In this document: piece after piece, positions 14,398-31,878 of the stretch
Layout: each line of letters starts with the position of its first letter
Numbering within the stretch: the first letter of the stretch is position 1
Assembly (NCBI GenBank): GCA_001804805.1
Contig: MHBH01000077.1
Coordinates: 87,355-151,354 of the forward strand
DNA length: 64,000 nt
Source: Lentisphaerae bacterium GWF2_49_21
GTDB taxonomy: Bacteria; Verrucomicrobiota; Lentisphaeria; Victivallales; GWF2-50-93
Reading direction: 5' to 3'
Position numbers and translations under genes: made by a program
The notes under the pieces: model-generated
What the model saw: the letters and a program-made list of their open reading frames with translations, nothing else
Told to the model about the DNA's origin: nothing
The model's database searches: none

Positions 14398-14402
14398 AAT
14401 TA

Positions 14403-14448
14403 GTATGTCGGGTTTTACCTGTACTGAGCATAGTCGAAGTAACCCGAC
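14403..14448 (+). repeat. REP-like hairpin, GTATG head, stem GTCGGGTT/AACCCGAC with a 26-nt loop insert
   Basis: GTATGTCGGGTT[ttacctgtactgagcatagtcgaagt]AACCCGAC. The insert is homologous to the loop inserts at 44880..44910 and 24175..24211. Confidence 0.7.
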
Positions 14449-14456
14449 GTTTAGTT

Positions 14457-14478
14457 GGCGGATTAAAATCCGCCCTAC
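14457..14478 (-). repeat. REP hairpin GTAGGGCGGA-TTTTAA-TCCGCC
   Basis: The plus strand reads GGCGGATTAAAATCCGCCCTAC. An inverted partner lies at 15351..15373 on the other side of the gene. Confidence 0.7.
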
Positions 14479-14511
14479 TTATGCGGTAAACATATATAGG
14501 AGTCGTAATCA

Positions 14512-15354: not shown

Positions 15355-15373
15355 GGCGGTTTTTTAAACCGCC
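15351..15373 (+). repeat. REP hairpin GTAGGGCGG-TTTTTTAAA-CCGCC; its GTAG head contains the TAG stop codon
   Basis: Stop codon at 15352-15354 lies inside the GTAG head. Confidence 0.7.
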
Positions 15374-15382
15374 AACAGAATT

Positions 15383-15404
15383 GTCGGGCTAAAGCCCAAC
15401 ATAC
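15383..15404 (-). repeat. REP hairpin GTATGTTGGGC-TTTA-GCCCGAC abutting the stop of the minus-strand AraC gene
   Basis: The minus strand reads TAA|GTATGTTGGGCTTTAGCCCGAC. There is a T-G wobble in the stem. Confidence 0.7.
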
Positions 15405-16253: not shown

Positions 16254-16333
16254 TAGTCCTATATATGGATAAGATAATCGTGTAAATTGCCTGATTCAAG
16301 ATGATGGGATATTTTCACGGAAGAAAAATCAAT

Positions 16334-16355
16334 GACGGGCTAAAGCCCATCATAC
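16334..16355 (-). repeat. REP hairpin GTATGATGGGC-TTTA-GCCCGTC
   Basis: Same architecture and the same T-G wobble as 15383..15404. It lies 15 nt upstream of the ATG at 16370. Confidence 0.65.
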
Positions 16356-16369
16356 TTAAAGGAGGAAAT

Positions 16370-17203
16370 ATGAGATTAGGCGGACCAGTGCATGGAAAAC
16401 ATGAAAGTCCGGAAGCCTGGGTGAAATTGGTCAAGGCGGCCGGATACCGTGCGGCATATTGTCCGGTAGGTGTGGAAACTGATATAAACCTCATCAAGGC
16501 ATACGAGTCTGCCGCTAAGAAGGCTGACATCGTGATCGCAGAGTGCGGTGCATGGAGCAATCCGATAAGCCCGGATGCAAAAATCCGGGAAGAAGCAATG
16601 TCCAAATGCAAGAAACAGCTCGCGCTTGCCGACGAGATCGGCGCATTGTGCTGTGTCAATATCGCAGGCTCACGAGGGGCGAAGTGGGACGGGCCTGACA
16701 AGAACGACTTCACTAAATCTACATTTGACCTGATAGTCGAATCCGTCAGGCAGATAATCGATGCCGTGAAGCCCAAGCGCGCTTTCTACACTCTTGAGAC
16801 CATGCCCTGGATGTATCCGGATTCCCCGGACTCCTATCTTGATCTGATCAAGGCGATCGACCGGAAGGCCTTTGCCGTACACCTGGATCCCGTGAATATC
16901 ATCTGCAGCCCCCAGAGGTATTTTAGCAACACCGACATTTTGAAGGAGTGCTTCAAAAAACTCGGTCCGTACATCAAATCCTGCCATGTAAAGGACATCA
17001 TCCTCAGGGACAAGCTGACAGTGCATCTCGACGAGTGCAGGCCTGGGACTGGAGGAATTGACTATGCGACTTATCTGAAGGAAGCAGGCAAATTGAACCA
17101 GGACGTGCCGTTGATGATAGAACATCTTCCGAACGGAGAGGAATACAGGCTGGCCGCGGAACACATGAGGTCTGTAGCGAAGAAGGAAGGACTGGAAATA
17201 TGA
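16370..17203 (+). CDS. sugar phosphate isomerase/epimerase (TIM barrel)
   Basis: Start at the ATG at 16370, after AAGGAGG. Family-like pattern HLDPVN...CHVKD. Confidence 0.75.
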   Translation: MRLGGPVHGKHESPEAWVKLVKAAGYRAAYCPVGVETDINLIKAYESAAKKADIVIAECGAWSNPISPDAKIREEAMSKCKKQLALADEIGALCCVNIAGSRGAKWDGPDKNDFTKSTFDLIVESVRQIIDAVKPKRAFYTLETMPWMYPDSPDSYLDLIKAIDRKAFAVHLDPVNIICSPQRYFSNTDILKECFKKLGPYIKSCHVKDIILRDKLTVHLDECRPGTGGIDYATYLKEAGKLNQDVPLMIEHLPNGEEYRLAAEHMRSVAKKEGLEI

Positions 17204-18171
17204 AGCATTATGCAGTCACTATTACCGCAAAGGAAAAGGCCGAACTCCGTGAGGTCGCTGAGCCTCCTGCCTTGAAGCCAAATGAGGTCAGAGGCAGGAC
17301 GCTCTGCACGTTGATCAGCCCCGGGACCGAACTCGCGTGGAACTATTGCGGAAAGAGTTTCCCGTCAAATCCGGGCTATGCCGCCGTATTCTCGGCCGAG
17401 GAGATGGGCACAGATGTCAAGGATATTAAAAAGGGGGATGTCTTTTTCTGCAAGAGCGGCCACAGGAGCATACAGCAGTGCGATGCCGGAGATGCCGTCA
17501 GGGTCCCGGAAGGTCTTGCCCCTGAGAAGGCGGTCATTGCAAGACTGATTGGTGTTTCATTGACGACATTGATCACGACTACAGCCAGACCGGGAGACAT
17601 TGTGATTGTCACCGGTGCCGGCCCTGTCGGATATCTTGCGTCCCAGATTTTCTCAATATCCGGCTATGAGGTTTTAATAGTCGAGCCGGATGCAGGCAGG
17701 AGGGATCTTGTAAAGAAGACATGCGGGCTCAAGGCGGTTGAAAAAATTCCATTTGAGGACAAATCAATTTGCGGAAATGTCGCGCTTGTCGTCGAATGTT
17801 CAGGCCATGAACAGGCTGTTCTCGAAGCATGCAAGGCGGTGAGGAAGCGCGGTGAAGTTGTGATGGTAGGCGTCCCATGGCAGAAAAAGACGGATCTTTG
17901 CGCTCACGAACTCCTCCATGCAGTCTTCCACAAGTATGTCGTCCTTAGAAGCGGATGGGAATGGGAGATTCCTCTTCATTCATCGGATTTCCGTCCGCAC
18001 AGCATATATTCAGGATATCAGACGGCGCTGAAATGGCTGGCTGAAGGGAAGGTCAAGCTTGACGGGCTGAGCACGCTGCTTGATCCGCGAAATCCGCAGG
18101 AGGCGTACCAGGATCTGCTGAACAAGCGCGCCAAAGGGCTTTTCTCGATCTTCGACTGGAGGATGATTTGA
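17200..18171 (+). CDS. zinc-type alcohol dehydrogenase (MDR) family oxidoreductase
   Basis: 323 aa. Rossmann VTGAGPVGYLASQ. ATGA overlap with the upstream gene. Confidence 0.75.
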   Translation: MKHYAVTITAKEKAELREVAEPPALKPNEVRGRTLCTLISPGTELAWNYCGKSFPSNPGYAAVFSAEEMGTDVKDIKKGDVFFCKSGHRSIQQCDAGDAVRVPEGLAPEKAVIARLIGVSLTTLITTTARPGDIVIVTGAGPVGYLASQIFSISGYEVLIVEPDAGRRDLVKKTCGLKAVEKIPFEDKSICGNVALVVECSGHEQAVLEACKAVRKRGEVVMVGVPWQKKTDLCAHELLHAVFHKYVVLRSGWEWEIPLHSSDFRPHSIYSGYQTALKWLAEGKVKLDGLSTLLDPRNPQEAYQDLLNKRAKGLFSIFDWRMI

Positions 18172-18205
18172 GGAACGTCTTATTGTAATATTGAACCTGA
18201 AACTT

Positions 18206-18342
18206 GTTGGTAGTTAAGCCCGTAAGGACTGTTTCTGGGAGTAGGTACGTGCTTCAGCATGTACCATCTTAATATTCAGGATTGGGACAGGCTAAAGCCC
18301 GTCCCTACTTTAAGAACATGTCTTGCGACATTAACTACAAAC
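18206..18342. repeat. two-shell composite REP element (137 bp)
   Basis: Outer shell: GTTGGTAGTTAA+hairpin (18206-18230) and hairpin+TTAACTACAAAC (18318-18342). Inner REPIN: GTAGGTACGTGCTTCAGCATGTACC (18241-18265) and GGGACAGGCTAAAGCCCGTCCCTAC (18284-18308). Confidence 0.8.
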
Positions 18343-18390
18343 GAATTCAAATAGGCGATTTAAAAACCGCCAGACCTGGGAGGAAATACT

Positions 18391-18756
18391 ATGATCATTC
18401 GCAAATTCGAAGCTGCCGTGAAGGAGTTCGACAAGTGCCATGACGGCAAGGGTGTTCTGCTCTGCACCGAGATGCTTGCGGAGTACCAGAGGAAGGAACC
18501 TGGAGTCAAGTTTTACCATGACAATATTCTTCAGCCGGGCGACAGCATAGGAGAGCATCTGCACAAGGACGACGAGGAGGTCTATATAATTATTGAAGGC
18601 ACTGGCATCATGAAAGTCGACGGAAAAGAGGAAAGGGTCCAGTCCGGAGATGTCTGCATCACCCGCAAAGGGCACAGCCATTCGCTTGTGAACACCGGGA
18701 AGACACCGATGCATTTCCTGGTGGTGGGAGTGGTGCTGCAAAAGGCAGGATATTAG
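18391..18756 (+). CDS. cupin domain protein
   Basis: 121 aa. GEHLHKDDEEVYIIIEGTG...GHSHSLVNTG, the two cupin motifs. Confidence 0.8.
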   Translation: MIIRKFEAAVKEFDKCHDGKGVLLCTEMLAEYQRKEPGVKFYHDNILQPGDSIGEHLHKDDEEVYIIIEGTGIMKVDGKEERVQSGDVCITRKGHSHSLVNTGKTPMHFLVVGVVLQKAGY

Positions 18757-18802
18757 AAGCGGCTATAAGAATACATTGCTAACTTGCTGCAGATATATTC
18801 CT

Positions 18803-18898
18803 GTTGGAGTTCACAGCTTTAGCGTGTGCATTTTTTTATTTTTTCATCCAGAAATTTCCCGGAATTACAAAGAACACGCTAAAGCTGTGAACTCCAAC
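18803..18898. repeat. GTTGGAG-headed REPIN doublet (perfect 25-bp inverted repeat)
   Basis: GTTGGAGTTCACAGCTTTAGCGTGT at 18803-18827 and its exact reverse complement at 18874-18898. Confidence 0.8.
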
Positions 18899-19024
18899 CT
18901 AATGATTTTACTAAGCGAAATATTTTCCCTGAATATCTCAATTGCCCTGCATCCCATGGCATGCTTTATGCTCCGTGACAATTAGATTCACTATGTTTGC
19001 ACAACGAAATTTTGGAGATGGCAA

Positions 19025-19405
19025 ATGATTCTTATCTTCGAAGACAACATGGATATCGGGCTCGTTCTGAAACGCATGCTAACCCACATGTTCCATGAGA
19101 ATGCCGTAGTGACATCCAATTTCGTTGATGCGGAAAATATGGTATTGGCCGGAGAAGTTGAACTTGTTCTGAGCGACCTGAATATTGAAGGCCACAAGGA
19201 ACAGGGGCTTGACCTCATTAAGAAAATAAGGAGGATCAAACCCCATACTTCTCCGCCAATCGTCGTCTATACCGGGGTGAACTGCAATGACACCTTGTAT
19301 GCCGAGGCGGAAAGGTTCTCCGACGAGATCTTCGAGAAGAGCGAAATCTCCCTGCCTCAGCTCTGCAAGGAGATGTACCGTCTGCTGAACCTCAGAAAAC
19401 GCTGA
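19025..19405 (+). CDS. stand-alone response regulator receiver domain protein
   Basis: 126 aa. CheY-like pattern (MILIFEDN..., LVLSDLNIEG, ...K). Confidence 0.7.
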   Translation: MILIFEDNMDIGLVLKRMLTHMFHENAVVTSNFVDAENMVLAGEVELVLSDLNIEGHKEQGLDLIKKIRRIKPHTSPPIVVYTGVNCNDTLYAEAERFSDEIFEKSEISLPQLCKEMYRLLNLRKR

Positions 19406-19410
19406 ATTCC

Positions 19411-19542
19411 AACCACGAAACACACGAAATAAAACTCTCTTAACCTCCCTGTTTTTTCTTAATCACAAAATCAATTGTTAATTTTTTGCGCAGCAAAACC
19501 TAAACAATGGTATTTTTCGTGTGATTAGTGTGTTTCGTGGTT
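19411..19542. repeat. inverted repeat built from tandem CACGAAA-type units
   Basis: AACCACGAAACACACGAAAT (19411-19430) against ATTTTTCGTGTGATTAGTGTGTTTCGTGGTT (19512-19542). A 15-bp perfect core. It starts 6 nt after the stop codon. Confidence 0.7.
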
Positions 19543-19614
19543 AATTCTTATCCCTTGCATTTAAAATCATTCCTAATATATTTAAAAACAAAACCAATTA
19601 AGGAATTATATCCC

Positions 19615-20619
19615 ATGCCACGCAAAAACGTCAAGATAAACAAACCGCCGGTGCTCATCAGGCAGACCCAGAAAAGCATCCAGAAGATCGAAAAGATGCT
19701 CGACGGGACTTTCCTATCATACTGGAATTCGCCCGGAGGATCCGTCTGCCACAACGATGTGATGGCGTTCTACGAGATCCTCAAATACATGAAGACCGGG
19801 AAGAATCTCTACCTCTTCATAAAGTCCAACGGCGGAGATGGAGAGGCTTCACTGCGAATCGTGAACCTGCTCAGGAAGCATTTCAACAAGATCATCGCGA
19901 TCCTCCCTCTTGAATGCGCGTCAGCGGCAACTATGATCGCCCTCGGCGCCGACGAGGTCCAGATGGGCCCCCTCGCCTACCTCACAGCAATCGACACCTC
20001 CCTCTGCCACAGTTTGTCGCCAGTCGACAAGAACAACCAGACGGTAAGCGTCAGCCAGGACGAGCTCACCCGCGTGATCCGCCTCTGGCACGAATATAAA
20101 CAGGGAGCCGGCGAAAATCCTTACAAATCGCTCTATCCGCACATACATCCCCTGGTTTTCGGGGCGATTGACAGGGCGAGTTCGCTTTCAATCAAGCTCT
20201 GCAAGGAAATTCTCTCGTACCACATAAAGGACGCCAAGGTTTCCGACAAGATAAGCCAGCACCTCAATTCGAACTATCCTTCGCACGAATATCCGATCAC
20301 CCTCCGCGAAGCCCAGAGGATCGGGCTGAAGGTCAAGGCGATAGATCCCGCCCTCAACGATCTGCTGATCGAACTGAACTCATATTATTCTGAGATGGGA
20401 CAGCGGGCCCTGACCGACTACGACGAGGAGAACTACCACAACAACGAGATCCTGAACATCCTCGAAGGCGACCGCATCCAGATCTACTACCAGAACGACA
20501 AGGACTGGCACTACAGGAAAGAGGAAAGGCGCTGGGTGCCTCTGAACGACATAAGCCTCTGGTACAGGCAGGTAGTCTCAGGGAAGAAGATCGTCTCTTC
20601 GAAGTTCCATATCAGATAA
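19615..20619 (+). CDS. ClpP-fold serine protease (SDH/SppA-like family)
   Basis: Start at the ATG at 19615. IKSNGGDGEASLRIVNLL...ECASAATMIALGADEV resembles serine dehydrogenase proteinase family proteins. Confidence 0.65.
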   Translation: MPRKNVKINKPPVLIRQTQKSIQKIEKMLDGTFLSYWNSPGGSVCHNDVMAFYEILKYMKTGKNLYLFIKSNGGDGEASLRIVNLLRKHFNKIIAILPLECASAATMIALGADEVQMGPLAYLTAIDTSLCHSLSPVDKNNQTVSVSQDELTRVIRLWHEYKQGAGENPYKSLYPHIHPLVFGAIDRASSLSIKLCKEILSYHIKDAKVSDKISQHLNSNYPSHEYPITLREAQRIGLKVKAIDPALNDLLIELNSYYSEMGQRALTDYDEENYHNNEILNILEGDRIQIYYQNDKDWHYRKEERRWVPLNDISLWYRQVVSGKKIVSSKFHIR

Positions 20620-20645
20620 ATTTCCGGACGGAAATTTATATTTTG
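20617..20645 (+). terminator. stop-codon-embedded palindrome TAAATTTCCG-GA-CGGAAATTTA followed by TATTTTG
   Basis: 10-bp stem whose first three bases are the TAA stop codon; a T-rich tail follows. Confidence 0.5.
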
Positions 20646-20649
20646 ATTT

Positions 20650-20787
20650 GCTTGTAGTAGTGCAATTTATTGCACATTCTAGAAGTAGGGACGGGCTTTA
20701 GCCTGTCCCACTCTTATAATCAAGATGGTACATGCTGAAGCACGTACCTACTTGGAATAACGGCGTATAAATTCGCCTACTACAAAC
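20650..20787. repeat. two-shell composite REP element (138 bp)
   Basis: Outer shell: GCTTGTAGTAG+TGCAATTTATTGCA and GGCGTATAAATTCGCC+TACTACAAAC. Inner REPIN at 20685-20751, same as the 18241 unit in opposite orientation with a diverged spacer. Confidence 0.8.
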
Positions 20788-20811
20788 ATGATCTGCGTGA
20801 AACTTGAACTC

Positions 20812-20879
20812 GTTGGAGTACAAACTTTAGTTTGTCTTCAGGATCAAAAAAATACGCAAGCTAAAGCTTGTACTCCAAC
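20812..20879. repeat. GTTGGAG-headed REPIN doublet with non-identical stems
   Basis: GTTGGAGTACAAACTTTAGTTTGTC (20812-20836) and CAAGCTAAAGCTTGTACTCCAAC (20857-20879). Confidence 0.75.
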
Positions 20880-20883
20880 CTAA

Positions 20884-21477
20884 TCAATTGGATCGGCGCA
20901 GGTCTTCTTGTAATTTTTTAACGGCCTTATACTCCTCCGAATCTGATTCCGTGCCGGCGACTACCGCCTTCACTATCGCCGAAATCTTCTCCTGCTGCTC
21001 CGGATTTATCCCGGCTTTTCCAAGTATTTCAGAAACTCCATCGATATATTTTTTTCCGCTGGCGGAAAAAAATATTATGACAAGAGAAGTCTTCACGACA
21101 CACGGATCACACTTGGTTCCGCCAAGGACATTGTCCGCCAGCTTGCACGCCTTTTCAAGATCCTTCTGGGCTTTGTCATCCAGCTTGAACTGACTGGAAA
21201 GAAGCGCCTTGACCTTCTCGATTACAGGTGATGCTGATTCGTCCTTTGAAGCCCTTCCGAGGCACTGGTCGGCGAACTTGCACCATTTGGCGCAGCCAAG
21301 ATCTATTCTGGGATTCTTGATCTCATTGCTGCATTTTTTGCAGATAAGGAAAGGTTCATCTTTCCAGAATTCCATCTCATTGCCGCAGTGCGGACATTTC
21401 AGCGTGAATATGTCCTCCGGCTTCCAGAATCTCATGTCCTGCCCCGGACACCTTGGCCTTGCGTTGTCGGATTTCAT
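20884..21477 (-). CDS. zinc-ribbon domain hypothetical protein
   Basis: 197 aa. N-terminal CPHCG...CKKC plus further Cys pairs. I recognise no family. Confidence 0.55.
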   Translation of the reverse strand: MKSDNARPRCPGQDMRFWKPEDIFTLKCPHCGNEMEFWKDEPFLICKKCSNEIKNPRIDLGCAKWCKFADQCLGRASKDESASPVIEKVKALLSSQFKLDDKAQKDLEKACKLADNVLGGTKCDPCVVKTSLVIIFFSASGKKYIDGVSEILGKAGINPEQQEKISAIVKAVVAGTESDSEEYKAVKKLQEDLRRSN

Positions 21478-21493
21478 TTATCAAAACCTTTTT

Positions 21494-21523
21494 TTGACAG
21501 GATAACAGGATTTACAGGATAAT
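21494..21523 (+). promoter_or_regulatory. promoter module copy 2: TTGACA-N18-GATAAT, spacer = 3 x ACAGGATWA; candidate promoter of the C1 operon
   Basis: Perfect -35 at 21494-21499 and GATAAT at 21518-21523. The next plus-strand gene starts at 21985, implying a leader of about 450 nt. Confidence 0.5.
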
Positions 21524-21600
21524 AATATTGTATGCCTTAGCATGCGGAAATCAAGCTTAATATTTTCATGTAACCGCCGGACTCGCAACGTTCCTATTTC

Positions 21601-21740
21601 GCTTGCAGTAGTCCGCCTAGGCGGATTTGCGCGTTAAGTAGGTACGTGCTTTAGCATGTACCATCTTAGTTTCCAGGAATGGGACAGGCTAAAGCCCGTC
21701 CCTACTTTAAAAAAACGCGCAAACATGCGCTACTACGAAC
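21601..21740. repeat. two-shell composite REP element (140 bp) with an extra 10-bp stem
   Basis: Outer shell: GCTTGCAGTAG+TCCGCCTAGGCGGA and GCGCAAACATGCGC+TACTACGAAC. Extra stem TTTGCGCGTT/AACGCGCAAA. Inner REPIN at 21638-21705. Confidence 0.8.
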
Positions 21741-21771
21741 GGAATCCTTTATTTTGCCAAGTCAGATGCTT

Positions 21772-21795
21772 TTGCCGGCGAGACGCCAGCGCTCC
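21772..21795 (+). repeat. left copy of a 24-bp perfect inverted repeat bracketing the homocysteine methyltransferase gene
   Basis: TTGCCGGCGAGACGCCAGCGCTCC. Its exact reverse complement is at 22925-22948. It contains a local GGCG-AGA-CGCC hairpin. Confidence 0.8.
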
Positions 21796-21805
21796 CTTAT
21801 TGATA

Positions 21806-21856
21806 ATAATGCCAATATGCCTTGCCATTTCTCAGGGCAAAGCATATTGGCATTAT
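21806..21856 (+). other. long hairpin (about 20 bp) in the putative operon leader
   Basis: ATAATGCCAATATGC-C-TTGCC[atttctcag]GGCAA-A-GCATATTGGCATTAT. No U-tract follows. Confidence 0.6.
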
Positions 21857-21984
21857 CCTGCAATATACTTGAAGTTTGCTATAAAGCTGCAAAACCCGGC
21901 TTTTATTTATTCGGGTGTATAATTATTGTTTGGCGTTTACTTGAGCGATGCAATATTTTACCAAAATTATTTTAGGAGGCTGAT

Positions 21985-22881
21985 ATGGGCAGGGGAAAAA
22001 TTGTTGACGCGCTGAAGAGCGGAAAAATCCTGGTTTCCGACGGGGCATGGGGGACTTTCCTTCAGAAAAAAGGACTTAAGCCGGGCGAGTGTCCGGAACT
22101 CTGGTGCATAGACCGTCCGGACGATGTCTATGATGTCGCCAAGAACTACATCGATGCCGGTGCGGACATGGTCGAATCCGACAGTTTCGGCGGAACCTGC
22201 TTCAAGCTCGAGCACTACCACCTCGCGGAAAGGACCGCCGAGATCAACATTGCCTCCGCCAAAATCTCCCGCAAGGCCGCCGGTGACAATAAATGGGTCA
22301 TAGCGTCAATTGGACCGACAGGAAAAATGCTTGTCATGGGGGATGTCACCGAAGACGATCTCTACAAGGCCTTCAAGGAACAGGCTGTCGCGCTGGAAAA
22401 AGGTGGAGCCGACGCCATCTGCATCGAGACAATGAGCGCGACCGACGAGGCTGCAATAGCCATCAAGGCCGTCAAGGAAAACACAAAATGCGAAGTCATC
22501 TGCACGTTCACCTTCGAACTGACCGCGCACGGCGGATACAGGACCATGATGGGCGTCACTCCTGCCGATGCCGCAAAGGCCGCGCTTGAAGCAGGCGCCG
22601 ACATAATCGGTCCGAACTGCGGGAACGGCATTGAACGAATGATCGAGATCGTCAGGGAAATAAAGAAAGCCGCTCCTAAGTCATTTATCCTCGTCCATGC
22701 GAACGCCGGACTTCCGAAAAACGTCAACGGCGTTGACATATTCCCGGAGACGCCAGAAGAAATGGCGAAGAGGGTTCCTGAACTTATCAAAGCCGGCGCA
22801 AACATCATCGGCGGCTGCTGCGGAACGACACCGGCACATATAAAGGCGATAAAGCAGGCGGTGGAAACCTGCAAGAAGTAA
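21985..22881 (+). CDS. stand-alone homocysteine S-methyltransferase domain protein (MetH N-terminal module type)
   Basis: 298 aa. LVSDGAWGT, IGPTG, ETMSA, GPNCG, HANAGLP and GGCCGTTPAHIK align with the MetH Hcy-binding domain, including the Zn-ligand cysteines. Confidence 0.85.
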   Translation: MGRGKIVDALKSGKILVSDGAWGTFLQKKGLKPGECPELWCIDRPDDVYDVAKNYIDAGADMVESDSFGGTCFKLEHYHLAERTAEINIASAKISRKAAGDNKWVIASIGPTGKMLVMGDVTEDDLYKAFKEQAVALEKGGADAICIETMSATDEAAIAIKAVKENTKCEVICTFTFELTAHGGYRTMMGVTPADAAKAALEAGADIIGPNCGNGIERMIEIVREIKKAAPKSFILVHANAGLPKNVNGVDIFPETPEEMAKRVPELIKAGANIIGGCCGTTPAHIKAIKQAVETCKK

Positions 22882-22882
22882 T

Positions 22883-22917
22883 TTGATACTTGATACTCGT
22901 AACTTGAAATTGGAAAT
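22883..22917 (+). repeat. 5 x 7-mer tandem array (TTGATAC TTGATAC TCGTAAC TTGAAAT TGGAAAT)
   Basis: Begins 2 nt after the stop codon at 22879-22881. Confidence 0.65.
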
Positions 22918-22924
22918 TATTATC

Positions 22925-22948
22925 GGAGCGCTGGCGTCTCGCCGGCAA
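22925..22948 (-). repeat. right copy of the 24-bp inverted repeat (GGAGCGCTGGCGTCTCGCCGGCAA)
   Basis: Exact reverse complement of 21772-21795. Confidence 0.8.
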
Positions 22949-22970
22949 TTGATTTAGAAATTCGAAATTA

Positions 22971-22995
22971 GTTGGAGTTCACAGCTTTAGCGTGT
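22971..22995 (+). repeat. single GTTGGAG-headed REP
   Basis: GTTGGAGTTCACAGCTTTAGCGTGT, identical to 18803-18827. Confidence 0.75.
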
Positions 22996-23038
22996 TCTTT
23001 AATTATCGATAAATAATATAATTGGAGGAATTGTTAAT

Positions 23039-24106
23039 ATGAAAACCAAATTCACCGCCACAGGCATTGGCAGTATGCCATTTCCGGATCCCGACTACGC
23101 AGTAAAGGTATCCCTCTCGAAGATGTGCAACGCCCCGATCTGGCCCCAGCTCCCGAAGCTCGGCCTGCATGAACAGATGGAGATCCAGTATTCCGAAGGC
23201 ATGCCCTGCACAGTGATCGATGAGGAGAAGCACAGGATGTATTTCGACACGTCAAAGGATTATTCCGAATCTTTTGCGCAACTCTACGAAGGCTACATTG
23301 CCGCATCCGAGGAAGGTGGAACCAGGGATTTCTCAAAGATGGCGATAAGCCCGGATTTCTCAAAGGGGATATACGCGCTCGAAAAGGCGCTCCAGGCAAA
23401 AGGCGGAGCAAAACTCCCGTTCGTGAAAGTGCAGACGACCGGTCCGTGCAGTTTCGCCCTGACACTCGTCGACGAGAACAAGCGCGCCATCTACTACAAC
23501 GAAGAGTTCCGCGACATGATCCTCAAGGCTCTTGCCATGAAATCCCGCTGGCAGATCCAGATGTTCCAGCCCTATGCTGAAAAGATCATCTGCTTCATCG
23601 ACGAACCCATCCTCTCGGCTTTCGGAAGCTCGACATATGTATCGGTCAAACGCGATGACGTTGTCATACTCGTAAACGAAGTCTCGGAAGCCATCCATGC
23701 GGAAAAAGCCCTTTCCGGAGTCCATTGCTGTGGAAATACAGAATGGAGCATACTCATCGACGCCGGCGTCGATATCGTAAACTTCGACGCATTCGGTTTC
23801 GGCGAGACGATCGCAATGTATCCGGAAGCTGTAAAGATGCATCTCGAACGCGGTGGAATCCTCGCATGGGGCGTTGTGCCTACATCGACCGCGATAAGGG
23901 ATCAGACCGTCGAGAAGCTTGCCGCGCATCTCGAGAAAATGATGGACAATCTGGCTTCAAAGGGAATCAACAAAAAGCTTATCGCGGAACAGGCGATGAT
24001 CACACCGTCATGCGGAACTGGCTCGATGGAACCGGCTGATGCGGAAAAAGTCTTCGAGACATTGTTCCAGCTCTCGAACACAATGAAAGCTAAGTATGGT
24101 TTTTAA
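23039..24106 (+). CDS. core-MetE-like (cobalamin-independent methionine synthase catalytic-domain family) zinc methyltransferase; candidate corrinoid-protein-dependent methionine synthase
   Basis: 355 aa. TATGIGSMP (compare MetE TTTIGSFP), IDEPIL, GVHCCGN and ITPSCGTG (MetE-type His/Cys/Cys zinc ligands). No N-terminal MetE domain. Confidence 0.65.
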   Translation: MKTKFTATGIGSMPFPDPDYAVKVSLSKMCNAPIWPQLPKLGLHEQMEIQYSEGMPCTVIDEEKHRMYFDTSKDYSESFAQLYEGYIAASEEGGTRDFSKMAISPDFSKGIYALEKALQAKGGAKLPFVKVQTTGPCSFALTLVDENKRAIYYNEEFRDMILKALAMKSRWQIQMFQPYAEKIICFIDEPILSAFGSSTYVSVKRDDVVILVNEVSEAIHAEKALSGVHCCGNTEWSILIDAGVDIVNFDAFGFGETIAMYPEAVKMHLERGGILAWGVVPTSTAIRDQTVEKLAAHLEKMMDNLASKGINKKLIAEQAMITPSCGTGSMEPADAEKVFETLFQLSNTMKAKYGF

Positions 24107-24262
24107 GTAGGTACGGGCTTTAGCCTGTACCATTGGTACACCCTAAAGGGCATACCTAAGAAGTAGGGACGGCCTTTCTGTGTCCGGCGTAGCCTTTTGG
24201 CGAAGTCGGAAGGCTGTCCCAATCAAGAACGTAGAATGGTACAGGCTAAAGCCCGTACCTAC
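24107..24262. repeat. compound REPIN filling the whole intergenic gap (4 REPs)
   Basis: GTAGGTACGGGCTTTAGCCTGTACC at 24107-24131, directly after the TAA stop. Its perfect inverse is at 24238-24262. Inside are a degenerate REP (24135-24160) and GTAGGGACGGCC[37-nt insert]GGCTGTCCC (24163-24220). Confidence 0.85.
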
Positions 24263-24278
24263 TTTAAGAAGATAAACT

Positions 24279-25058
24279 ATGAAAATCGCAATATCAGGGA
24301 AAGGGGGGGTGGGCAAATCGACACTTGCCGCCGCCCTCGCCCTGCTCATGGCGGAGAAGAAGAGAAAAGTGCTTGCGCTAGACACGGATCCGGCTGCGAA
24401 TCTCGCAAACGCCATCGGCATTCCTGCAGACATCAGGAACAAGATTATCCCAATTTCCAAACAAAAATCCCTGATCGAAGAGCGCACCGGCGCAAAAGTG
24501 AAACAATACGGACAGATGTTCAAGCTGAATCCTGAAGTCTCTGACATCGCCGACAAGTACGCCGTCAATTACAATGGAGTCTCCCTCATCGTGGTTGGCG
24601 CGATCGAAAAAGGCGGGAGCGGCTGTGCGTGTCCGGAGAGCGTCCTGATCAGGGCACTTGTGACAAACCTCGTGCTCCACAGGAACGAGGCGCTGATAAT
24701 GGACATGGAGGCCGGTGTCGAACATCTCGGCAGGGCGACCGCCAGCGGTGTCGACGGCATGATCATAGTCGTGGAGCCCGGACAGCGTTCCATCGACTGC
24801 GCAAAGGCGATAATCGGGATGGCCCATGACATCGGACTGAAGAAGCTGCATATCGTCGCAAACAGGGTGACCTGCCATGAAGACGAAACTTTTGTCAAGA
24901 ATTCTTTTCCTGACCAGGAACTGCTTGGATCTATCCCATTCTCGGAGAAGGTCCGCAAGTCCGATATGAACGAGGTTTCCGTCCTTGAGAAGATAGAACC
25001 GGAGACAAGAAAGGCTTTTGAATCAATTCTAAATAATGTTGAGAGGCTTTTAAAATGA
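24279..25058 (+). CDS. cooC: CODH/ACS nickel-insertion ATPase (CooC/AcsF family)
   Basis: 259 aa. P-loop GKGGVGKST; CooC CxC motif (GSGCACPES). Confidence 0.85.
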   Translation: MKIAISGKGGVGKSTLAAALALLMAEKKRKVLALDTDPAANLANAIGIPADIRNKIIPISKQKSLIEERTGAKVKQYGQMFKLNPEVSDIADKYAVNYNGVSLIVVGAIEKGGSGCACPESVLIRALVTNLVLHRNEALIMDMEAGVEHLGRATASGVDGMIIVVEPGQRSIDCAKAIIGMAHDIGLKKLHIVANRVTCHEDETFVKNSFPDQELLGSIPFSEKVRKSDMNEVSVLEKIEPETRKAFESILNNVERLLK

Positions 25059-25267
25059 AAACGGATGTCGTGCGTGAAAAATATGTCCGTCTCATGACGG
25101 AAATCGAGGATCTCGAGGACAAGATCGAGAAAGCTGAGAAAAAAGTTTCAAAGAAGGCCGGAAAGAAGGCTGAAAAGGAGCTTGAGCTGATGAAAGAACA
25201 GCTTGCGGCGAAAAGGAACGAGCTCGCAAGGATCAGCGACGGCTGCGGAAAACCGCATGCGCATTAG
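25055..25267 (+). CDS. small coiled-coil protein with a C-terminal Cys/His tail (hypothetical)
   Basis: 70 aa. ATGA overlap with cooC (translational coupling). Lys/Glu-rich heptad-like sequence ending in DGCGKPHAH. Confidence 0.45.
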   Translation: MKTDVVREKYVRLMTEIEDLEDKIEKAEKKVSKKAGKKAEKELELMKEQLAAKRNELARISDGCGKPHAH

Positions 25268-25269
25268 AA

Positions 25270-25439
25270 GTAGGGACGGCCTTTCTGTGTCCGGCGTAGC
25301 CTTTTGGCGAAGTCGGAAGGCTGTCCCAAGCAAGAAAGCAGAATGGTACAGGCTAAAGCCCGTACCTAAGAAGTAGGGACGGCCTTTAGGCTGTCCCAAG
25401 TAAGAATGTAGAATGGTACAGGCTAAAGCCCGTACCTAC
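25270..25439. repeat. two tandem REPIN doublets
   Basis: 25270-25327 is identical to 24163-24220 (the insert-bearing REP). Paired REP at 25345-25366. GTAGGGACGGCCTTTAGGCTGTCCC at 25373-25397 is the insert-free version. GGTACAGGCTAAAGCCCGTACCTAC at 25415-25439. Confidence 0.85.
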
Positions 25440-25448
25440 TTAAACAAA

Positions 25449-26279
25449 ATGTCCTACACAATAGCAGTGACAGGCAAAGGCGGGGTCGGCAAGACGACAG
25501 TGACCGGGCTTATCATCAACCGGCTCCTGGCGAACGGACGGACGCCTGTGCTTGCCGTAGACGCGGATGCAAATTCATGCCTGCATTCCGTTCTCGGGGT
25601 GACGGTTGAGAATTCTGTCGGCAAAATCCGTGAAGAAGCACGAGAGGAAGCGTCGAAGGGAAAAGTCACGGGAATCGCAAAACAGCAGATGCTCGAAATG
25701 AAGATAGCAGAATGTCTTGTCGAAGCGAAGGATTTCGATCTTATCGCGATGGGCAGGCCCGAAGGACCGGGCTGCTACTGCTACGCGAACAATGTATTGA
25801 GGGACGTAATCCGGAAACTTTCATCGAGCTATCCATACGTGGTAATCGACAACGAGGCGGGACTTGAAAACCTTTCGCGGCGTATTGTCCAGAAGGTCGA
25901 TCTTCTTGTGATGGTCGCGGATCCTTCGAAGAACGGAATCGAGACTATCAGGCGTCTTCACAAGCTTGCCTTTGAGATGAAAATAGATTTCAAGAAGCTC
26001 TGCATCTTCATCAACAGGACCAGGGACGGCAAGATTCCTGAAGAGGCGAAATATCTGAAGAATGAGACTGAAGCTGATTTTATCATACCTCTACCCGACA
26101 ACAAGGAAATTGCATCATTCTCGGAAAAGGGAACTTCACTGTTCGAGCTTTCCGTTGAGAACGAAGTGTCCAAGATAGTAGATGAATTTGTAGGACAATT
26201 GGATTGCATATTTGGCTGCGCCAAATCTGCAAAAGCAACTGCGTTGCAGGAGAAAATGGCAGCGAAGCTGCACATATAG
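25449..26279 (+). CDS. cooC: CODH nickel-insertion ATPase (CooC family), second copy
   Basis: Start at the ATG at 25449 (the upstream part of the ORF is REP sequence). GKGGVGKTT P-loop and GPGCYCY CxC motif. Confidence 0.8.
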   Translation: MSYTIAVTGKGGVGKTTVTGLIINRLLANGRTPVLAVDADANSCLHSVLGVTVENSVGKIREEAREEASKGKVTGIAKQQMLEMKIAECLVEAKDFDLIAMGRPEGPGCYCYANNVLRDVIRKLSSSYPYVVIDNEAGLENLSRRIVQKVDLLVMVADPSKNGIETIRRLHKLAFEMKIDFKKLCIFINRTRDGKIPEEAKYLKNETEADFIIPLPDNKEIASFSEKGTSLFELSVENEVSKIVDEFVGQLDCIFGCAKSAKATALQEKMAAKLHI

Positions 26280-26311: not shown

Positions 26312-28261
26312 ATGGCCAAGGAAGCTAAAAGACCGGAAGAGCTGGTTTCCGACCAGGCGTCGATCGAGACGATATTGAAAGCTCAGCTCGACTGCGTCGA
26401 AACTTGTTTCGTCAGGGCTGAAGCCCAGGGGATGCCCTGCAAGTTCGGAACACTCGGAGTATGCTGCAAGATATGCCACATGGGACCGTGCAAGATAACT
26501 CCGAAGTCTCCGCGCGGCGTCTGCGGAGCCGATGCCGACACGATTGTCGCCAGGAATTTCCTGCGCGAAACAGCTGCCGGAACTGCAGCCCATTCTGACC
26601 ATGGGCGCCATCTCGCCCTACGTTTCAAGAAGATTGCCGAAGGCAAGGAACCGGACTACAAGATCACCGATGTCAAGGCACTCCACAGGATAGCCGGAAA
26701 ATATGGAATAAAGACCGAAGGACGCGCTCAGAATGAAATAGCCCTTGAACTTGCGAATACGTTCATGTCCGAATTCACATCCCAGGAGGAACCGCTCAAG
26801 ACATTGAATCTAGCGCCGGAAAAGACCCGGGCCGTATGGAAAAAGACCAAAATCGAACCATACGGGGCAGACAGGATGGTGGTCGAGGCGATGCACCGTA
26901 CACATATGGGAGTTGATCATGATTACAGGAATCTTCTCGACATGGCCTTCAGGACTTCACTTGCAGACGGCTGGGGCGGAGCGCATGTTGCAACGCAGAT
27001 TTCCGACATAATGTTCGGAACGCCTGAACCTGTCAAAAGCAGTGCCAATCTCGGTGTGCTCGAAGAGAAGAAGGTAAATATAATTGTTCATGGACACGAG
27101 CCTGCTCTTTCGGAAATGCTCGCAACTGCGGTCTATGATCCGGAGATAATTGAATATGCGAAGAAGGCTGGAGCTGAAGGAGTGAACCTTGCAGGGCTCT
27201 GCTGCACTGCGAATGAGATCCTCATGCGCCGCGGAATAAATGTCGCCGGAAACTTCCTCCAGCAGGAACTTGCAATCATCACCGGCGCCGTTGAAATGAT
27301 GGTGGTCGATGTGCAGTGTGTGATGCCGAGCCTTCCGTCGGTCGCCGCGTCATATCATACATTGGTTGTTTCTACAACGGACATCGCAAAGACCATCGGA
27401 GCAATCCACATGGAGTTCGACGAGGATCACGCCTATCTTTCGGCAAAAAACTTAATTAAGAAGGCTATCGACAATTTCAAGAACCGCGATCCGAAGAAAA
27501 TGCAGATCCCGAAAGTCAAGGAACCTCTCATCGCAGGATTCAGCGTTGAAGCGATAAGATACATGCTCGGTGGATCATTCAGGGCTTCATTCCGCCCTCT
27601 CAACGACGCCATAATCCAGGGCAGGATCCGCGGAATCGCCGGAATCGTCGGCTGCAACAACATCAAGACTAAAACAGATTCGTATATCAACTCTATTACA
27701 AGAGAACTTATTAAACGGAACGTCCTAATTCTTAAGACGGGATGCGCCGCACAGGCCTCAGGCAAGGCTGGAAAACTTACTCCTGAAACCGCTCTGGGAG
27801 AGGCCGGACAGGGACTGCGCGAAGTCTGCGAGGCCGTAGGAATTCCGCCGATCCTCCACATGGGGAGCTGTGTCGACAACACGCGCATCCTCGAGGCTGC
27901 TTCTGAAATCGTCTATGAAGGCGGACTCGGTGACAGCATCGCGAAAGTTCCCGCAGTGGGCGTCGCCCCCGAATGGATGAGCGAGAAGGCCGTCGCGATC
28001 GGTTGTTATTTTGTGGCGTCAGGAGTCGATGTGATCCTTGGACAGCCTTTCCATATTTCCGGTTCGGAGAACGTGGTGAAATATCTCGACGAAGGGGCGA
28101 GGGAGAAGTACGGCGGGGGTTTCATATATATTCCTGATCCTATGGAGGCCGTCGAGAAGATCATGTCGCTCATCGAGGCAAAGCGTGAGAAGCTCGGTAT
28201 CAACAAGAAGGCCGAACGCAAGCTGCTCGACATGAAAGATAGGAGATCTACCAATGTCTAA
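26312..28261 (+). CDS. cooS: anaerobic Ni-Fe carbon monoxide dehydrogenase catalytic subunit
   Basis: 649 aa. N-terminal Cys clusters (CKFGTLGVCCKICHMGPC...CGA), AHSDHGRHL, GCNN, HMGSCVDN. Confidence 0.92.
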   Translation: MAKEAKRPEELVSDQASIETILKAQLDCVETCFVRAEAQGMPCKFGTLGVCCKICHMGPCKITPKSPRGVCGADADTIVARNFLRETAAGTAAHSDHGRHLALRFKKIAEGKEPDYKITDVKALHRIAGKYGIKTEGRAQNEIALELANTFMSEFTSQEEPLKTLNLAPEKTRAVWKKTKIEPYGADRMVVEAMHRTHMGVDHDYRNLLDMAFRTSLADGWGGAHVATQISDIMFGTPEPVKSSANLGVLEEKKVNIIVHGHEPALSEMLATAVYDPEIIEYAKKAGAEGVNLAGLCCTANEILMRRGINVAGNFLQQELAIITGAVEMMVVDVQCVMPSLPSVAASYHTLVVSTTDIAKTIGAIHMEFDEDHAYLSAKNLIKKAIDNFKNRDPKKMQIPKVKEPLIAGFSVEAIRYMLGGSFRASFRPLNDAIIQGRIRGIAGIVGCNNIKTKTDSYINSITRELIKRNVLILKTGCAAQASGKAGKLTPETALGEAGQGLREVCEAVGIPPILHMGSCVDNTRILEAASEIVYEGGLGDSIAKVPAVGVAPEWMSEKAVAIGCYFVASGVDVILGQPFHISGSENVVKYLDEGAREKYGGGFIYIPDPMEAVEKIMSLIEAKREKLGINKKAERKLLDMKDRRSTNV

Positions 28262-31796: not shown

Positions 31797-31797
31797 T

Positions 31798-31878
31798 CTC
31801 GCACTAAGGCACAAAGGCTCTAAGTATTATGAAATTCAAAATAGATGAAACTTCGTGGCTTTGTGACTTTGTGAGAGG
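31798..31878. repeat. inverted repeat of tandem CACAAAGG-type units between acsB-D and acsC
   Basis: CTCGCACTAAGGCACAAAGGCTCTAAG against CTTCGTGGCTTTGTGACTTTGTGAGAGG. It begins 2 nt after the stop codon. Confidence 0.6.

Follow-up and report, generated by a model that had tools for sequence, protein, structure and literature searches.

The hairpin repeats in the intergenic gaps between 18172 and 25448 of the 64,000-nucleotide stretch analysed here (the window), two of these gaps lying inside the CO-dehydrogenase/acetyl-CoA synthase operon, are real GTAG-headed REP and REPIN elements of a Victivallales bacterium. It is very likely that several co-resident GTAG-tagged REP families fill these gaps, mostly as inverted doublets with their heads outside (REPINs) and as BIME-like mosaics, in which doublets are nested between other small GTAG hairpins, and that the repeats are non-autonomous elements copied by a REP-associated tyrosine transposase (RAYT). 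An earlier note had called the repeats REPs and REPINs, and the identification was correct: GTAG heads, covarying hairpins, extragenic location, dispersal in relatives and a REP-flanked RAYT in the window all agree with it. The note had also placed REPs, REPINs or tandem-unit inverted repeats in every gap above 10 nt between 18172 and 25448, and structured repeats do occupy all eight, with GTAG-headed REPs in seven and a tandem-unit inverted repeat alone in one. The overlap that it described between cooC1 (ending at 25058) and the small 70-aa ORF (starting at 25055) exists, and consists of ATGA. Pfam supports the gene identities of this stretch, whose gaps contain the following.

18172-18390: nested composite 18210-18375, with outer GTAGTTAA hairpins 18210-18231 (+) and 18316-18338 (-) flanking a class A REPIN, 18240-18310 (arms 18241-18267, +, and 18282-18308, -), and a degenerate class D hairpin, 18350-18375, at the 3' end
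18757-19024: class B inverted pair 18803-18898, with GTTGGAG heads, GTTGGAGTTCACAGCTTTAGCGTGTGC arms of 93% complementarity and a 36-nt spacer
19406-19614: tandem-unit inverted repeat 19407-19546, of CACGAAA units, the sole repeat of this gap and not a GTAG REP
20620-20883: nested composite 20654-20783, with outer GTAGTAG hairpins 20654-20675 (+) and 20762-20783 (-) around a class A REPIN, 20683-20753; class B-like inverted pair 20812-20879 (GTTGGAGTACAAAC...), its end 4 nt away from the Zn-ribbon gene's TGA stop
21478-21984: nested composite 21608-21736, made of GTAG hairpin 21608-21625 (+), class A REPIN 21636-21707 and GTAGTAG hairpin 21716-21736 (-); GC hairpin arm 21772-21804 (GCCGGCGAGACGCCAGC), whose inverted partner is 22916-22948
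22882-23038: GC hairpin 22916-22948 and, beside it, a lone class B unit, 22971-23000 (+)
24107-24278, from the 355-aa methyltransferase gene to cooC1: two tandem REPINs, 24105-24264, with REPs at 24105-24133 (+, flush with TAA), 24135-24160 (-), 24161-24221 (+, class A-long) and 24236-24264 (-)
25268-25448, from the 70-aa ORF to cooC2: two tandem REPINs, 25268-25441, with REPs at 25268-25328 (+, class A-long, right after TAG), 25343-25368 (-), 25371-25399 (+) and 25413-25441 (-); 25266-25368 shows 97% identity to 24159-24261 of the gap before

The two GC hairpins bracket the S-methyltransferase gene. Class B units are weak as single hairpins (z = -0.65), and a lone arm of the 18803-18898 pair forms no stable hairpin by itself. 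They mostly have GTTGGAG heads in place of GTAG and could represent another, MITE-like type of element.

The REP families of this region are also found at 14.4, 15.4, 16.3, 44.0, 44.9, 46.2, 49.7 and 63 kb of the window. Inside 18172-25448, 7 of 8 gaps are REP-positive; for the rest of the window the figure is 9 of 22 (one-sided Fisher p = 0.03). The local excess is only modest because the same families recur elsewhere. The 6.7 kb of intergenic DNA contains 23 GTAG-tagged hairpins with a stem of at least 7 bp, the 57 kb of coding DNA not one; in the window these repeats are strictly extragenic. Those mapped outside the region, together with the RAYT gene, are as follows.

14402-14452 (+): class C-long REP with a GTATG head
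14454-14483 (-): class D REP, AAGTAGGGCGG..CCGCC
15349-15409: class D REP (+), its GTAG holding the TAG stop of the DUF4886 gene, and class C REP (-), flush with the TAA of the AraC gene
16331-16360 (-): lone class C REP in a divergent gap, immediately 5' of the RBS of the gene starting at 16370
43964-44036: class A REPIN in a divergent gap, adjoining the AGGAG Shine-Dalgarno sequence of an AraC-type gene (ATG 44047)
44866-44990: class A REPIN, with long arm 44868-44916 (+) and arm 44930-44957 (-), then a GTAGTTAA-type hairpin
46129-46350: GTAGTTAA hairpin pair at 46129-46192, then at 46279-46350 a class B pair whose head is GTAGGAG in this case
62946-63085: class F REP triplet (GTAGCCGCGTCAC.. 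+, GTAGCCACGCCAC.. -, GTAGCCGCGTCAC.. -), 5' of the RAYT gene
63114-63593 (+): RAYT gene, 159 aa, between recO and an HhH-GPD glycosylase gene
63611-63751: second class F REP triplet, 3' of the RAYT gene

The DUF4886 and AraC genes converge on the gap that holds the 15349-15409 REPs.

The main family, class A, has the consensus AAGTAGGKACGKGC-TTTA-GCMTGTMCCAT. Searching the window with this pattern at up to three mismatches gives 25 strand-hits, corresponding to 14 sites, against 0.06 expected. In a consensus of 87 copies drawn from the window and from Victivallales loci, the AAGTAGG head is conserved at 77-98% per position and the CCAT tail is present. Across 63 distinct class A copies, 98.4% of stem cells are paired and stem changes are double-sided 59 times, compared with 18.3 in shuffles, none of 500 of which scored as high. 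A G·T pair, at positions left free by the search pattern, is conserved in 58 of these 63 copies, and the DNA hairpin is more stable on the GTAG strand (-8.7 kcal/mol) than on the complement (-6.3 kcal/mol). Some copies carry a second small GTAG hairpin within the loop, a difference from the GTAG REPs as described in the available text of PMC3733652.

The heads were said to abut stop codons at four sites, and all four are exact: TAA at 24104-24106 is followed directly by GTAGG at 24107; GTAG at 15351-15354 includes the TAG stop at 15352-15354; on the minus strand TAA (the reverse complement of 15405-15407) is followed by GTATG; and TAG at 25265-25267 is separated by AA from GTAGG at 25270. TAA and TAG triplets are part of the (T)AAGTAGG sequence that is conserved 5' in the main family, so the head is able to overlap or supply a stop codon.

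Hairpins in such places could also be ordinary host signals, intrinsic terminators or protein-binding palindromes, that are alike by convergence and not by copying. A lax terminator scan does return 23 sites, where 12.7 ± 3.5 are expected, and several of these are REP hairpins. However, near-identical composites of 70-135 nt lie at non-orthologous loci and in other species, with a similarity exceeding that of coding DNA: a 115-nt composite from 21608-21736 has a non-orthologous copy with 94.8% identity in Lentisphaerae bacterium GWF2_50_93 (L031), while orthologous genes are ~83% identical. The GTAG heads and CCAT tails are conserved outside the stem, many copies are antisense or in divergent gaps, and a RAYT is present, all of which make convergence scarcely credible. 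The class A pattern recurs at more than 20 loci, in Lentisphaerae bacterium GWF2_50_93 and in several MAGs of Victivallales and Victivallis, and the REP families of the window are dispersed in related Victivallales/Lentisphaerota MAGs.

The gene product at 63114-63593 matches PF01797 (Y1_Tnp, E = 1.8e-7) and the REP-associated tyrosine transposase profile NF047646 (85.1 bits, cut-off 80), with a weak match to the IS200 profile NF033573 (23.9 bits, cut-off 55). Some of its homologues are named RayT in their source annotation, and the recO/HhH-GPD context is found in three assemblies. The two class F triplets, composed of GTAGCC REPs, are 96.6% identical to each other, and RAYT paralogues in Victivallaceae are also flanked by GTAGCC REPs. 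By its sequence, this is a bona fide REP-associated tyrosine transposase. A RAYT with class A flanks was not found, the window RAYT and three paralogues all having GTAGCC REPs. Among the best 120 hits of a search that started from a RAYT with GCTTTAGC-loop hairpins on its flanks, none was named as Victivallales. REPs would be non-autonomous single-strand-DNA elements, copied in trans by such (HUH/Y1) enzymes, and would accumulate where insertion is tolerated: between genes, beside or inside existing hairpins, and right after stop codons.

The small genes at 18-21 kb had been suggested to turn over like cassettes, each delimited by repeats. Such repeats would act as in an integron or another site-specific cassette system. 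The genes are indeed functionally unrelated with repeats on each side, the upstream neighbours of the CO-dehydrogenase/acetyl-CoA synthase operon vary in more distant relatives (REP boundaries have no visible part in this), and the class B pairs are ~70-96-bp imperfect palindromes with GTTGGAG...CTCCAAC ends. These ends, GTT...AAC, are however the reverse of attC (RYYYAAC...GTTRRRY) and one base off the consensus at each end, the genes do not all point the same way, with Zn-ribbon on the minus strand, and no integrase was found among the Pfam-scanned or annotated genes. In the relative L114 the gene order is the same as here (receiver, protease, Zn-ribbon, S-methyltransferase, 355-aa gene, cooC, small ORF, cooC, CODH, ACS), the 355-aa proteins are 94% identical, and there is not one GTAG-tagged hairpin in 9.6 kb. 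The composite 20654-20783 is missing there, its orthologous gap being 28 nt long. The right arm of the 19407-19546 repeat is kept in L114 and L136 with altered unit sequence. For three of the four genes, receiver, protease and Zn-ribbon, this conservation without REPs contradicts turnover; only the cupin gene is replaced, by a membrane-protein gene in L136. Single-gene cassettes are largely refuted and highly improbable.

A third possibility is a selected regulatory function of the REP blocks in the C1 operon, by which they would set different levels of the methyltransferase, CooC1, CooC2 and CODH/ACS via stabilisation of upstream mRNA segments, attenuation, or ribosome stalling at the stop. 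Precedents from E. coli are a stabilising effect of REPs on upstream mRNA, transcriptional attenuation by BIMEs, and reduced translation, through trans-translation, where a REP lies within ~15 nt of a stop codon. The predicted RNA folds of the two operon gaps are very stable, at -100.4 kcal/mol (z = -10.5) for the first and -82 kcal/mol (z = -6.0) for the second. Heads are 0-2 nt away from stop codons, 7 nt separate the final REP from the start codon of cooC2, and single REPINs occupy the same two positions in the relative L053. Against this, no REPs lie at the orthologous sites in L114 (syntenic), L113, L107, L109 and L111, where the operons are intact, so the REPIN blocks are not a conserved part of operon control. 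The elements also occur at many unrelated loci, divergent promoter gaps included, and the terminator scan found no U-tract hairpin on the sense strand of either operon gap. Any expression effect may be a by-product, which would leave the presence of the elements unexplained. A selected regulatory role is thus unlikely, though less so than the two readings above. The operon REPINs are lineage-specific, one relative alone having them too; they would be insertions and not core operon signals, with the direction, insertion or loss, read from an unrooted comparison.

Returning to the RAYT-copied REP families, their closest counterparts are the GTAG REPs of Di Nocera, De Gregorio and Rocco (2013, PMC3733652) and Nunvar et al. 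(2010), which are likewise 22-nt stem-loops, tagged with GTAG at one end and with G·T pairs in the stem. In the available text of PMC3733652, these form dimers with the heads outside (HH), which often combine two stem variants as heterodimers, as well as clusters and insertions in other palindromes, with several families per genome; their GTAG ends overlap and supply TAG stops, and their hosts include the PVC bacteria O. terrae and R. baltica. Stop-codon supply, G·T pairs, heterodimers, clusters and palindrome nesting have thus all been described already, while Victivallales/Lentisphaerota are absent from that survey text. The survey defines 24 families; the stem and loop here read GGKACGKGC-TTTA-GCMTGTMCC. 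As in the REPIN-RAYT systems of Pseudomonas and Enterobacteria (Bertels and Rainey 2011, PMC3116915), the repeated unit is an inverted REP doublet with a short spacer, the RAYT has its own REPs on both sides and a constant housekeeping neighbourhood (here recO/glycosylase, in three assemblies), and between-species similarity of the repeats exceeds that of coding DNA; the RAYT here is, however, paired with the GTAGCC family and not with the one filling 18-25 kb. E. coli BIMEs are likewise mosaics in which REPs alternate in orientation and linker motifs recur, and they too sit within operons, between genes, and behind stop codons, but the likeness is one of arrangement, with no sequence similarity (BIME features being IHF, gyrase and Pol I binding, and attenuation). 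The HUH/Y1 catalytic domain is shared with IS200/IS605 transposases such as IS608 TnpA, as is the presumed recognition of sub-terminal hairpins on one DNA strand; unlike in those systems, the RAYT scores far below the IS200 cut-off while passing that of NF047646, and the repeats do not form the termini of an insertion sequence with the RAYT gene as cargo.

The operon blocks would have inserted at gaps held by other repeat classes in relatives. If transcribed, they would form very stable hairpins that lack U-tracts on the sense strand, and transcription termination by them seems unlikely. Their likeliest side-effect would be 3'-exonuclease protection or processing of the upstream message, together with hindered cooC2 initiation. 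Differential expression inside the operon is possible. The hairpin repeats are not a gene-cassette system; they belong to a known kind of bacterial repeat, of which they are an ordinary case.

Structured repeats occupy all eight intergenic gaps between 18172 and 25448, as the earlier note had claimed, although the sole element of the gap at 19406-19614, a tandem-unit inverted repeat, is of another kind. The four junctions of REP heads with stop codons that were described there are exact to the base, and the overlap between cooC1 and the small ORF after it (ATGA, in the region 25055-25058) is confirmed. The gene map, based on reading the sequence of 15000-26000 together with the ORF list and Pfam, is as follows.

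Genes of the stretch and the start of the CODH/ACS operon
14512-15354, DUF4886 gene
15405-16253, minus strand, AraC-type regulator gene
16370-17203, sugar-phosphate isomerase-like TIM barrel gene
17200-18171, Zn-dehydrogenase gene
18391-18756, cupin gene
19025-19405, receiver gene
19615-20619, SDH/ClpP-like protease gene
20884-21477, minus strand, Zn-ribbon protein gene
21985-22881, homocysteine S-methyltransferase family gene
23039-24106, 355-aa MetE-like methyltransferase gene
24279-25058, cooC1
25055-25267, 70-aa coiled-coil ORF
25449-26279, cooC2
from 26312, CODH, ACS (with fused CdhD domain), CdhD, RACo and DUF3786 genes

The ACS gene (28254-31796) encodes a 1180-aa fusion of CODH_A_N, CdhC, the ACS C-terminal domain and a CdhD-like domain. 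The fusion is conserved in three relatives (L107, L109 and L111; 1169-1191 aa), and a separate full-length CdhD gene follows it. Just downstream of the operon, at 36050-36508, a GIY-YIG nuclease gene (88 aa, minus strand) adjoins a tRNA gene (36434-36508, minus strand).

The gap elements are GTAG-tagged REPs, that is, short imperfect palindromes with GTAG at one end that are dispersed and extragenic. The earlier note had named REPs and REPINs (inverted REP doublets with heads outside), and the GTAG heads, the covarying hairpins, the extragenic location and the presence in the window of a RAYT (REP-associated tyrosine transposase) gene bear this out. The core of class A, the main GTAGG-headed family in this stretch (GGKACNNGCTTTAGCNNGTMCC), has 25 strand-hits (14 sites) with at most 3 mismatches, against 0.06 expected. 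A family-agnostic scan for stems of at least 7 bp, with GTAG within the 8 bases preceding the stem, places 23 hairpins in the 6.7 kb of intergenic DNA in the window and none in its 57.3 kb of coding DNA; hairpins that lack the tag are distributed over both. Gaps with REPs make up seven of eight inside the 7-kb stretch and 9 of 22 in the rest of the window (Fisher test, one-sided, p = 0.03), and the stretch is a local hot spot without being unique. The 10 kb past the window end have a single match to the searched repeat-head patterns, and Rfam at gathering thresholds reports only one tRNA in the whole window.

Class A has a 9-bp stem and a 4-nt loop. Across 63 distinct copies from the window and from Victivallales/Lentisphaerota loci, 98.4% of the stem cells are paired, and shifting the partner along the stem lowers pairing to 29-49%. 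Three stem pairs have compensatory changes, alternating between G-C, U-A and C-G. Double-sided changes number 59 cells versus 18.3 ± 3.0 in shuffled sets (none of 500 shuffles as high), where the copies of a replicating family are non-independent events. Stem position 6 has a G·T pair in 58 of the 63 copies, at positions left free in the search pattern, and since this pair is conserved the hairpin of the GTAG strand is stronger than that of its complement: folded as DNA, the two give -8.7 vs -6.3 and -6.9 vs -4.9 kcal/mol, with z-scores of -4.1 and -4.5 for class A folds. In a larger set of 87 copies, each position of G-T-A-G is 94-98% conserved.

At least six classes of hairpin repeat are co-resident, several of them GTAG-tagged, even within the gaps of the Wood-Ljungdahl (CODH/ACS) operon. 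The GTAG head is also found in classes D, E and F; those of classes B (GTTGGAG) and C (GTATG) deviate.

Repeat classes
Class A: ttNAAGTAGGKACGKGC-TTTA-GCMTGTMCCAT
Class B: GTTGGAGTTCACAGCTTTAGCGTGTGC, found as inverted pairs; a lone unit forms no stable hairpin
Class C: AAGTATGTTGGGCTTTAGCCCGACA
Class D: AAGTAGGGCGG, T/A-rich loop, CCGCC
Class E/E': GTAGTTAA or GTAGTAG, then a variable small hairpin
Class F: GCTGTAGCCGCGTCAC-TCTG-NTGACGCG

The elements form a BIME-like mosaic of REP clusters with alternating orientation and recurrent linkers. Class A REPINs, heads outside, typically join a GGTACGTGC arm to a GGGACGGGC arm over a spacer of about 14-24 nt, and this doublet of T-arm and G-arm is repeated as a unit at 12 or more loci, where matches of 70-115 nt are 87-95% identical. 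Two class E/E' hairpins enclose it at 18210-18338, 20654-20783 and 21608-21736, and these nested composites have the linker GTTCTTAAAGTAGG in common. In another species (L031), a locus that is not orthologous carries a copy of the composite at 21626-21740 with 94.8% identity; orthologous coding DNA of the two genomes has only about 83% identity. The two operon gaps, 24107-24278 between the 355-aa methyltransferase gene and cooC1 (gap 1) and 25268-25448 between the 70-aa ORF and cooC2 (gap 2), each carry two tandem doublets as +/-/+/- arrays with the common linker CCTAAGAAGTAGG, and one 103-nt REPIN is 97% identical between them (24159-24261 and 25266-25368). Each also has a long class A unit (24161-24221 and 25268-25328) whose TTTA loop bears an extra small GTAG hairpin; the same long variants occur in Lentisphaerae bacterium GWF2_50_93 (L099 and L067).

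Counting those at 44868-44916 and 14402-14452 in the window, at 2213-2283 of L099 and at 5775-5835 of L067, such long REPs have a 25-35-nt insert in place of the TTTA loop. Several inserts are themselves small GTAG-headed hairpins (GTAGCC-TTTT-GGC; GTAGTTAAAGC...), and those at 44868 and 14402 both have CCTGTNCTGAGCNTA..CGAAG despite host REPs of different classes. A 33-nt inverted repeat (21772-21804 and 22916-22948, 88% complementary, arms 1.1 kb apart) brackets the S-methyltransferase gene. Its second arm contains a GC hairpin from the terminator scan, the first arm being the complementary sequence, and a related hairpin, ACAGGCGAGACACCTGT, lies 3' of the same gene in a relative (L114).

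The RAYT ORF (63114-63593) has PF01797 at 31.8 bits and NF047646, "REP-associated tyrosine transposase", at 85.1 bits (cut-off 80), and is far below the cut-off of the IS200 model NF033573 (23.9 bits; cut-off 55). It has the HIH and Y..NP motifs, and several sources name its homologues RayT. On each side of the gene stands a 140-bp block with a triplet of class F REPs (GTAGCC-headed), the two blocks having 96.6% identity, and class F REPs also occupy a RAYT-free position in a related genome (L099). Three independent assemblies, ENA ERZ27254744, NCBI GCA_003488745.1 and JGI 3300025154, agree with the window in having recO and an HhH-GPD glycosylase gene as neighbours, and match it at 100% over the compared parts (4-10 kb). 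Three Victivallaceae paralogues (46-52% identity) also have GTAGCC-headed REPs alongside, with different stems, as is usual for RAYT and REP pairs. The pairing of a REP family with the RAYT it flanks holds for class F and its GTAGCC triplets.

A search of the window, the 10 kb beyond it, about 100 loci and the RAYT homologues gave no RAYT with class A REPs at its sides, and this missing RAYT is the main gap in the argument. A regex and phmmer search of all ORFs of about 110 loci returned only the RAYT of the window and that of one Ca. Kapaibacterium contig (L022), and the 10 kb beyond the window end have no second RAYT. The Kapaibacterium RAYT (211 aa) has GGGGCATGCTTTAGCTTGCCCC hairpins on both sides (3240-3300 and 3935-3965) with the class A loop (GCTTTAGC) but with a GGTGT head instead of GTAG; a database search with it gave Bacteroidota and Chloroflexota names, with no Victivallales among the best 120. 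In L107 a different Y1_Tnp gene (19017-19306) comes immediately after CdhD, and ahead of it lies an inverted pair headed by TTGGAGT (TTTGGAGTGCGCAGGCTTGACTGCGC ... GCGGTGTCAAGCCACCGCAGTCCAAAG). The class B repeats (GTTGGAG) may be served by a transposase of this type.

The conserved part of class A extends beyond the GTAG head. Over the 87 copies it reaches AA at -5 (77%) and -4 (95%), T is over-represented at -6 to -8, and the commonest heads are TTAAAGTAGG or TTTAAGTAGG. At 24104-24106 both A residues of the stop codon TAA fall on those positions. The 70-aa ORF ends with TAG in the two REP-bearing genomes and with TAA (L113) or TGA (L107 and L114) in REP-free ones. A REP can therefore overlap or supply the stop; stop codons provided by GTAG REPs have already been described (PMC3733652). 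An insertion preference 3' of TAA/TTAA may lie behind this. It is unlikely that the series of orthologous gaps, empty in L107/L114, singly filled in L053 and multiply filled in the window, the REPs with another small GTAG hairpin in their loop or the heads that start on the AA of TAA record where a RAYT integrates REPINs, with single-stranded hairpin loops and the 3' side of TAA/TTAA as preferred targets. If true, REPIN insertion would for the first time have a target-site rule taken from nature, and the closeness of GTAG REPs to stop codons would have a mechanistic reason.

The orthologous gaps range from empty or singly filled in relatives to multiply filled in the window, which is presence and absence between species.

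State of the operon gaps in relatives (identity is that of the 355-aa protein)
L114 (JGI contig): 94%, DNA about 83%; one and the same block of about 125 nt, made of tandem units and not of REPs, in both cooC gaps (4505-4640 and 5627-5752)
L053: 89.6%; gap 1, one class A REPIN at the same position with the same TAA/GTAGG junction; gap 2, one class A REPIN at the same position with a TAG-CA-GTAGG junction
L113: 87%; gap 1, tandem units; gap 2, small plain hairpin
L107/L108: 85%; gap 1, 2 nt only (TAAGTATG); gap 2, tandem-unit inverted repeats surrounding a PF05635 gene
L109: 80%; gap 1, unrelated spacer; gap 2, rearranged locus
L111: 77%; unrelated spacers in both gaps

Since the gaps of relatives differ in this way, the operon REPINs are lineage-specific occupants of gaps repeatedly colonised by different repeats. 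The earlier note had also suggested that the small genes between the repeats may turn over like cassettes. L114 argues against this: its gene order matches that of the window from receiver through ACS, and it has no GTAG-tagged hairpin in 9.6 kb. Its gap between the protease and Zn-ribbon genes is 28 nt vs 264 nt in the window and retains just a small shared hairpin (ATTTCCG..GGAAAT), and its gap between the Zn-ribbon and methyltransferase genes is without the nested REPIN. The receiver, protease and Zn-ribbon genes keep a stable linkage to the operon without REPs. For these three, turnover is contradicted by the outcome that the earlier note itself had named as refuting it; the cupin gene alone differs, a membrane-protein gene being in its place in L136.

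A related reading, that class B pairs are integron attC sites, is rejected. Their ends (GTTGGAG...CTCCAAC) stand in the wrong order against RYYYAAC...GTTRRRY and are one base off this consensus, the inverted Zn-ribbon gene breaks the common orientation of the genes, L114 retains the synteny, and no integrase is found among the Pfam-scanned genes or the annotated assembly neighbours. An artefact of assembly is ruled out by the 100% identity of the window to independent NCBI and JGI assemblies over the overlaps, and is countered also by L053, a different species with REPINs at the same positions. The RNA of gap 1 folds at -100.4 kcal/mol (z = -10.5) and that of gap 2 at -82 kcal/mol (z = -6.0). 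An intrinsic terminator would be a GC-rich hairpin with a U-run after it on the transcribed strand; the REP tails are ATTCT or ATCTT, and rejection of the terminator reading comes from the lack of a U-tract on the sense strand. Because the plus-strand scan finds no hairpin with a U-run in either 24107-24278 or 25268-25448, read-through is expected.

Inferences about RNA effects draw on the biology of E. coli REPs and BIMEs; E. coli work on REPs near stop codons reportedly involves trans-translation. By this analogy, a plausible by-product of the REPs in the operon gaps would be 3'-exonuclease barriers or RNase processing sites, through which the message for the upstream methyltransferase would have its stability uncoupled. 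In gap 2 the final REP ends 7 nt ahead of the cooC2 start codon, and because it is so close, it may hinder initiation at cooC2.

Beyond the window, the class A pattern was found, among the matches listed, in more than 20 separate 8-kb stretches of GWF2_50_93 and in several stretches of Victivallales MFD12006 and an uncultured Victivallis MAG, with more than 70 copies in the loci of related MAGs. Lone matches in other phyla are mostly unrelated palindromes with the same fixed bases. A few have a GTAGG head, and GTAGG hairpins with a GCTTTAGC centre are seen in a Nitrospinota MAG (JACQEX01; L008 353-374 and L058 580-601), in Acidobacteriaceae (L035, L071 and L102) and in Ktedonobacter (L028, L085 and L103). 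The Nitrospinota MAG has an identical 25-mer, GTAGGTACGGGCTTTAGCCTGTACC, G·T position included. These hairpins could reflect horizontal spread of a REP with its RAYT, mis-binning or convergence.

A second intergenic filler without a GTAG tag consists of runs of 6-8-nt tandem units (e.g. CACGAAA, ACAGGAT and GTCAGT), often as inverted arms. Such runs fill the operon gaps of relatives without REPs, and we know of no named family for them.

Further positions of tandem-unit runs
Window: 9997-10075, 19407-19546, 21490-21525, 22884-22912, 31797-31890, 35200-35232, 35918-35960, 43790-43885, 52090-52140, 59320-59360
Relatives, besides the two L114 blocks: L113 1962-2050; L109 9905-9995

A consensus fold of 19400-19560 with L114 and L136 has a misaligned left arm. 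The relative with 85% identity has PF05635 genes (23S rRNA intervening-sequence or Avd-like four-helix bundle) within its CODH/ACS operon (L107 10282-10860 and 17087-17680; L108 10006-10584 and 16811-17363), and the one before cooC2 has tandem-unit repeats in inverted orientation on its two sides (TTATAGGTTATAAG... / ...CTTATAACCAATAAC). Such flanking suggests that repeats of this kind may be what is left of IVS-like insertions.

REPs break short-read assemblies, and one public contig of the same operon (L002, Logan SRR6488021, independent short reads), whose position 1 is window 25417, terminates within the final REP of gap 2. They would also confound the prediction of operons and terminators in these MAGs, and spurious upstream start codons arise, as in the mechanical ORFs 25413-26279 and 43771-44859, which start within REPs or ahead of them; judging by homologues and Shine-Dalgarno motifs, the real start codons are those at 25449 and 44047.

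For GTAG REPs, the traits on record include the GTAG tag, G·T pairs, head-outside heterodimers, hybrid clusters, insertion into palindromes, multiple families per genome, the supply of stop codons and presence in the PVC group (PMC3733652), alongside the REPIN trait catalogue (PMC3116915). Every structural trait noted here is catalogued for GTAG REPs, REPINs and BIMEs in these two sources, and the survey text (PMC3733652) does not mention Lentisphaerota. The elements leave the understanding of REPs unchanged and extend known REP/REPIN-RAYT biology to the Victivallales (Lentisphaerota), where the graded series of orthologous gaps is a natural data set on the gain, loss and clustering of REPINs.
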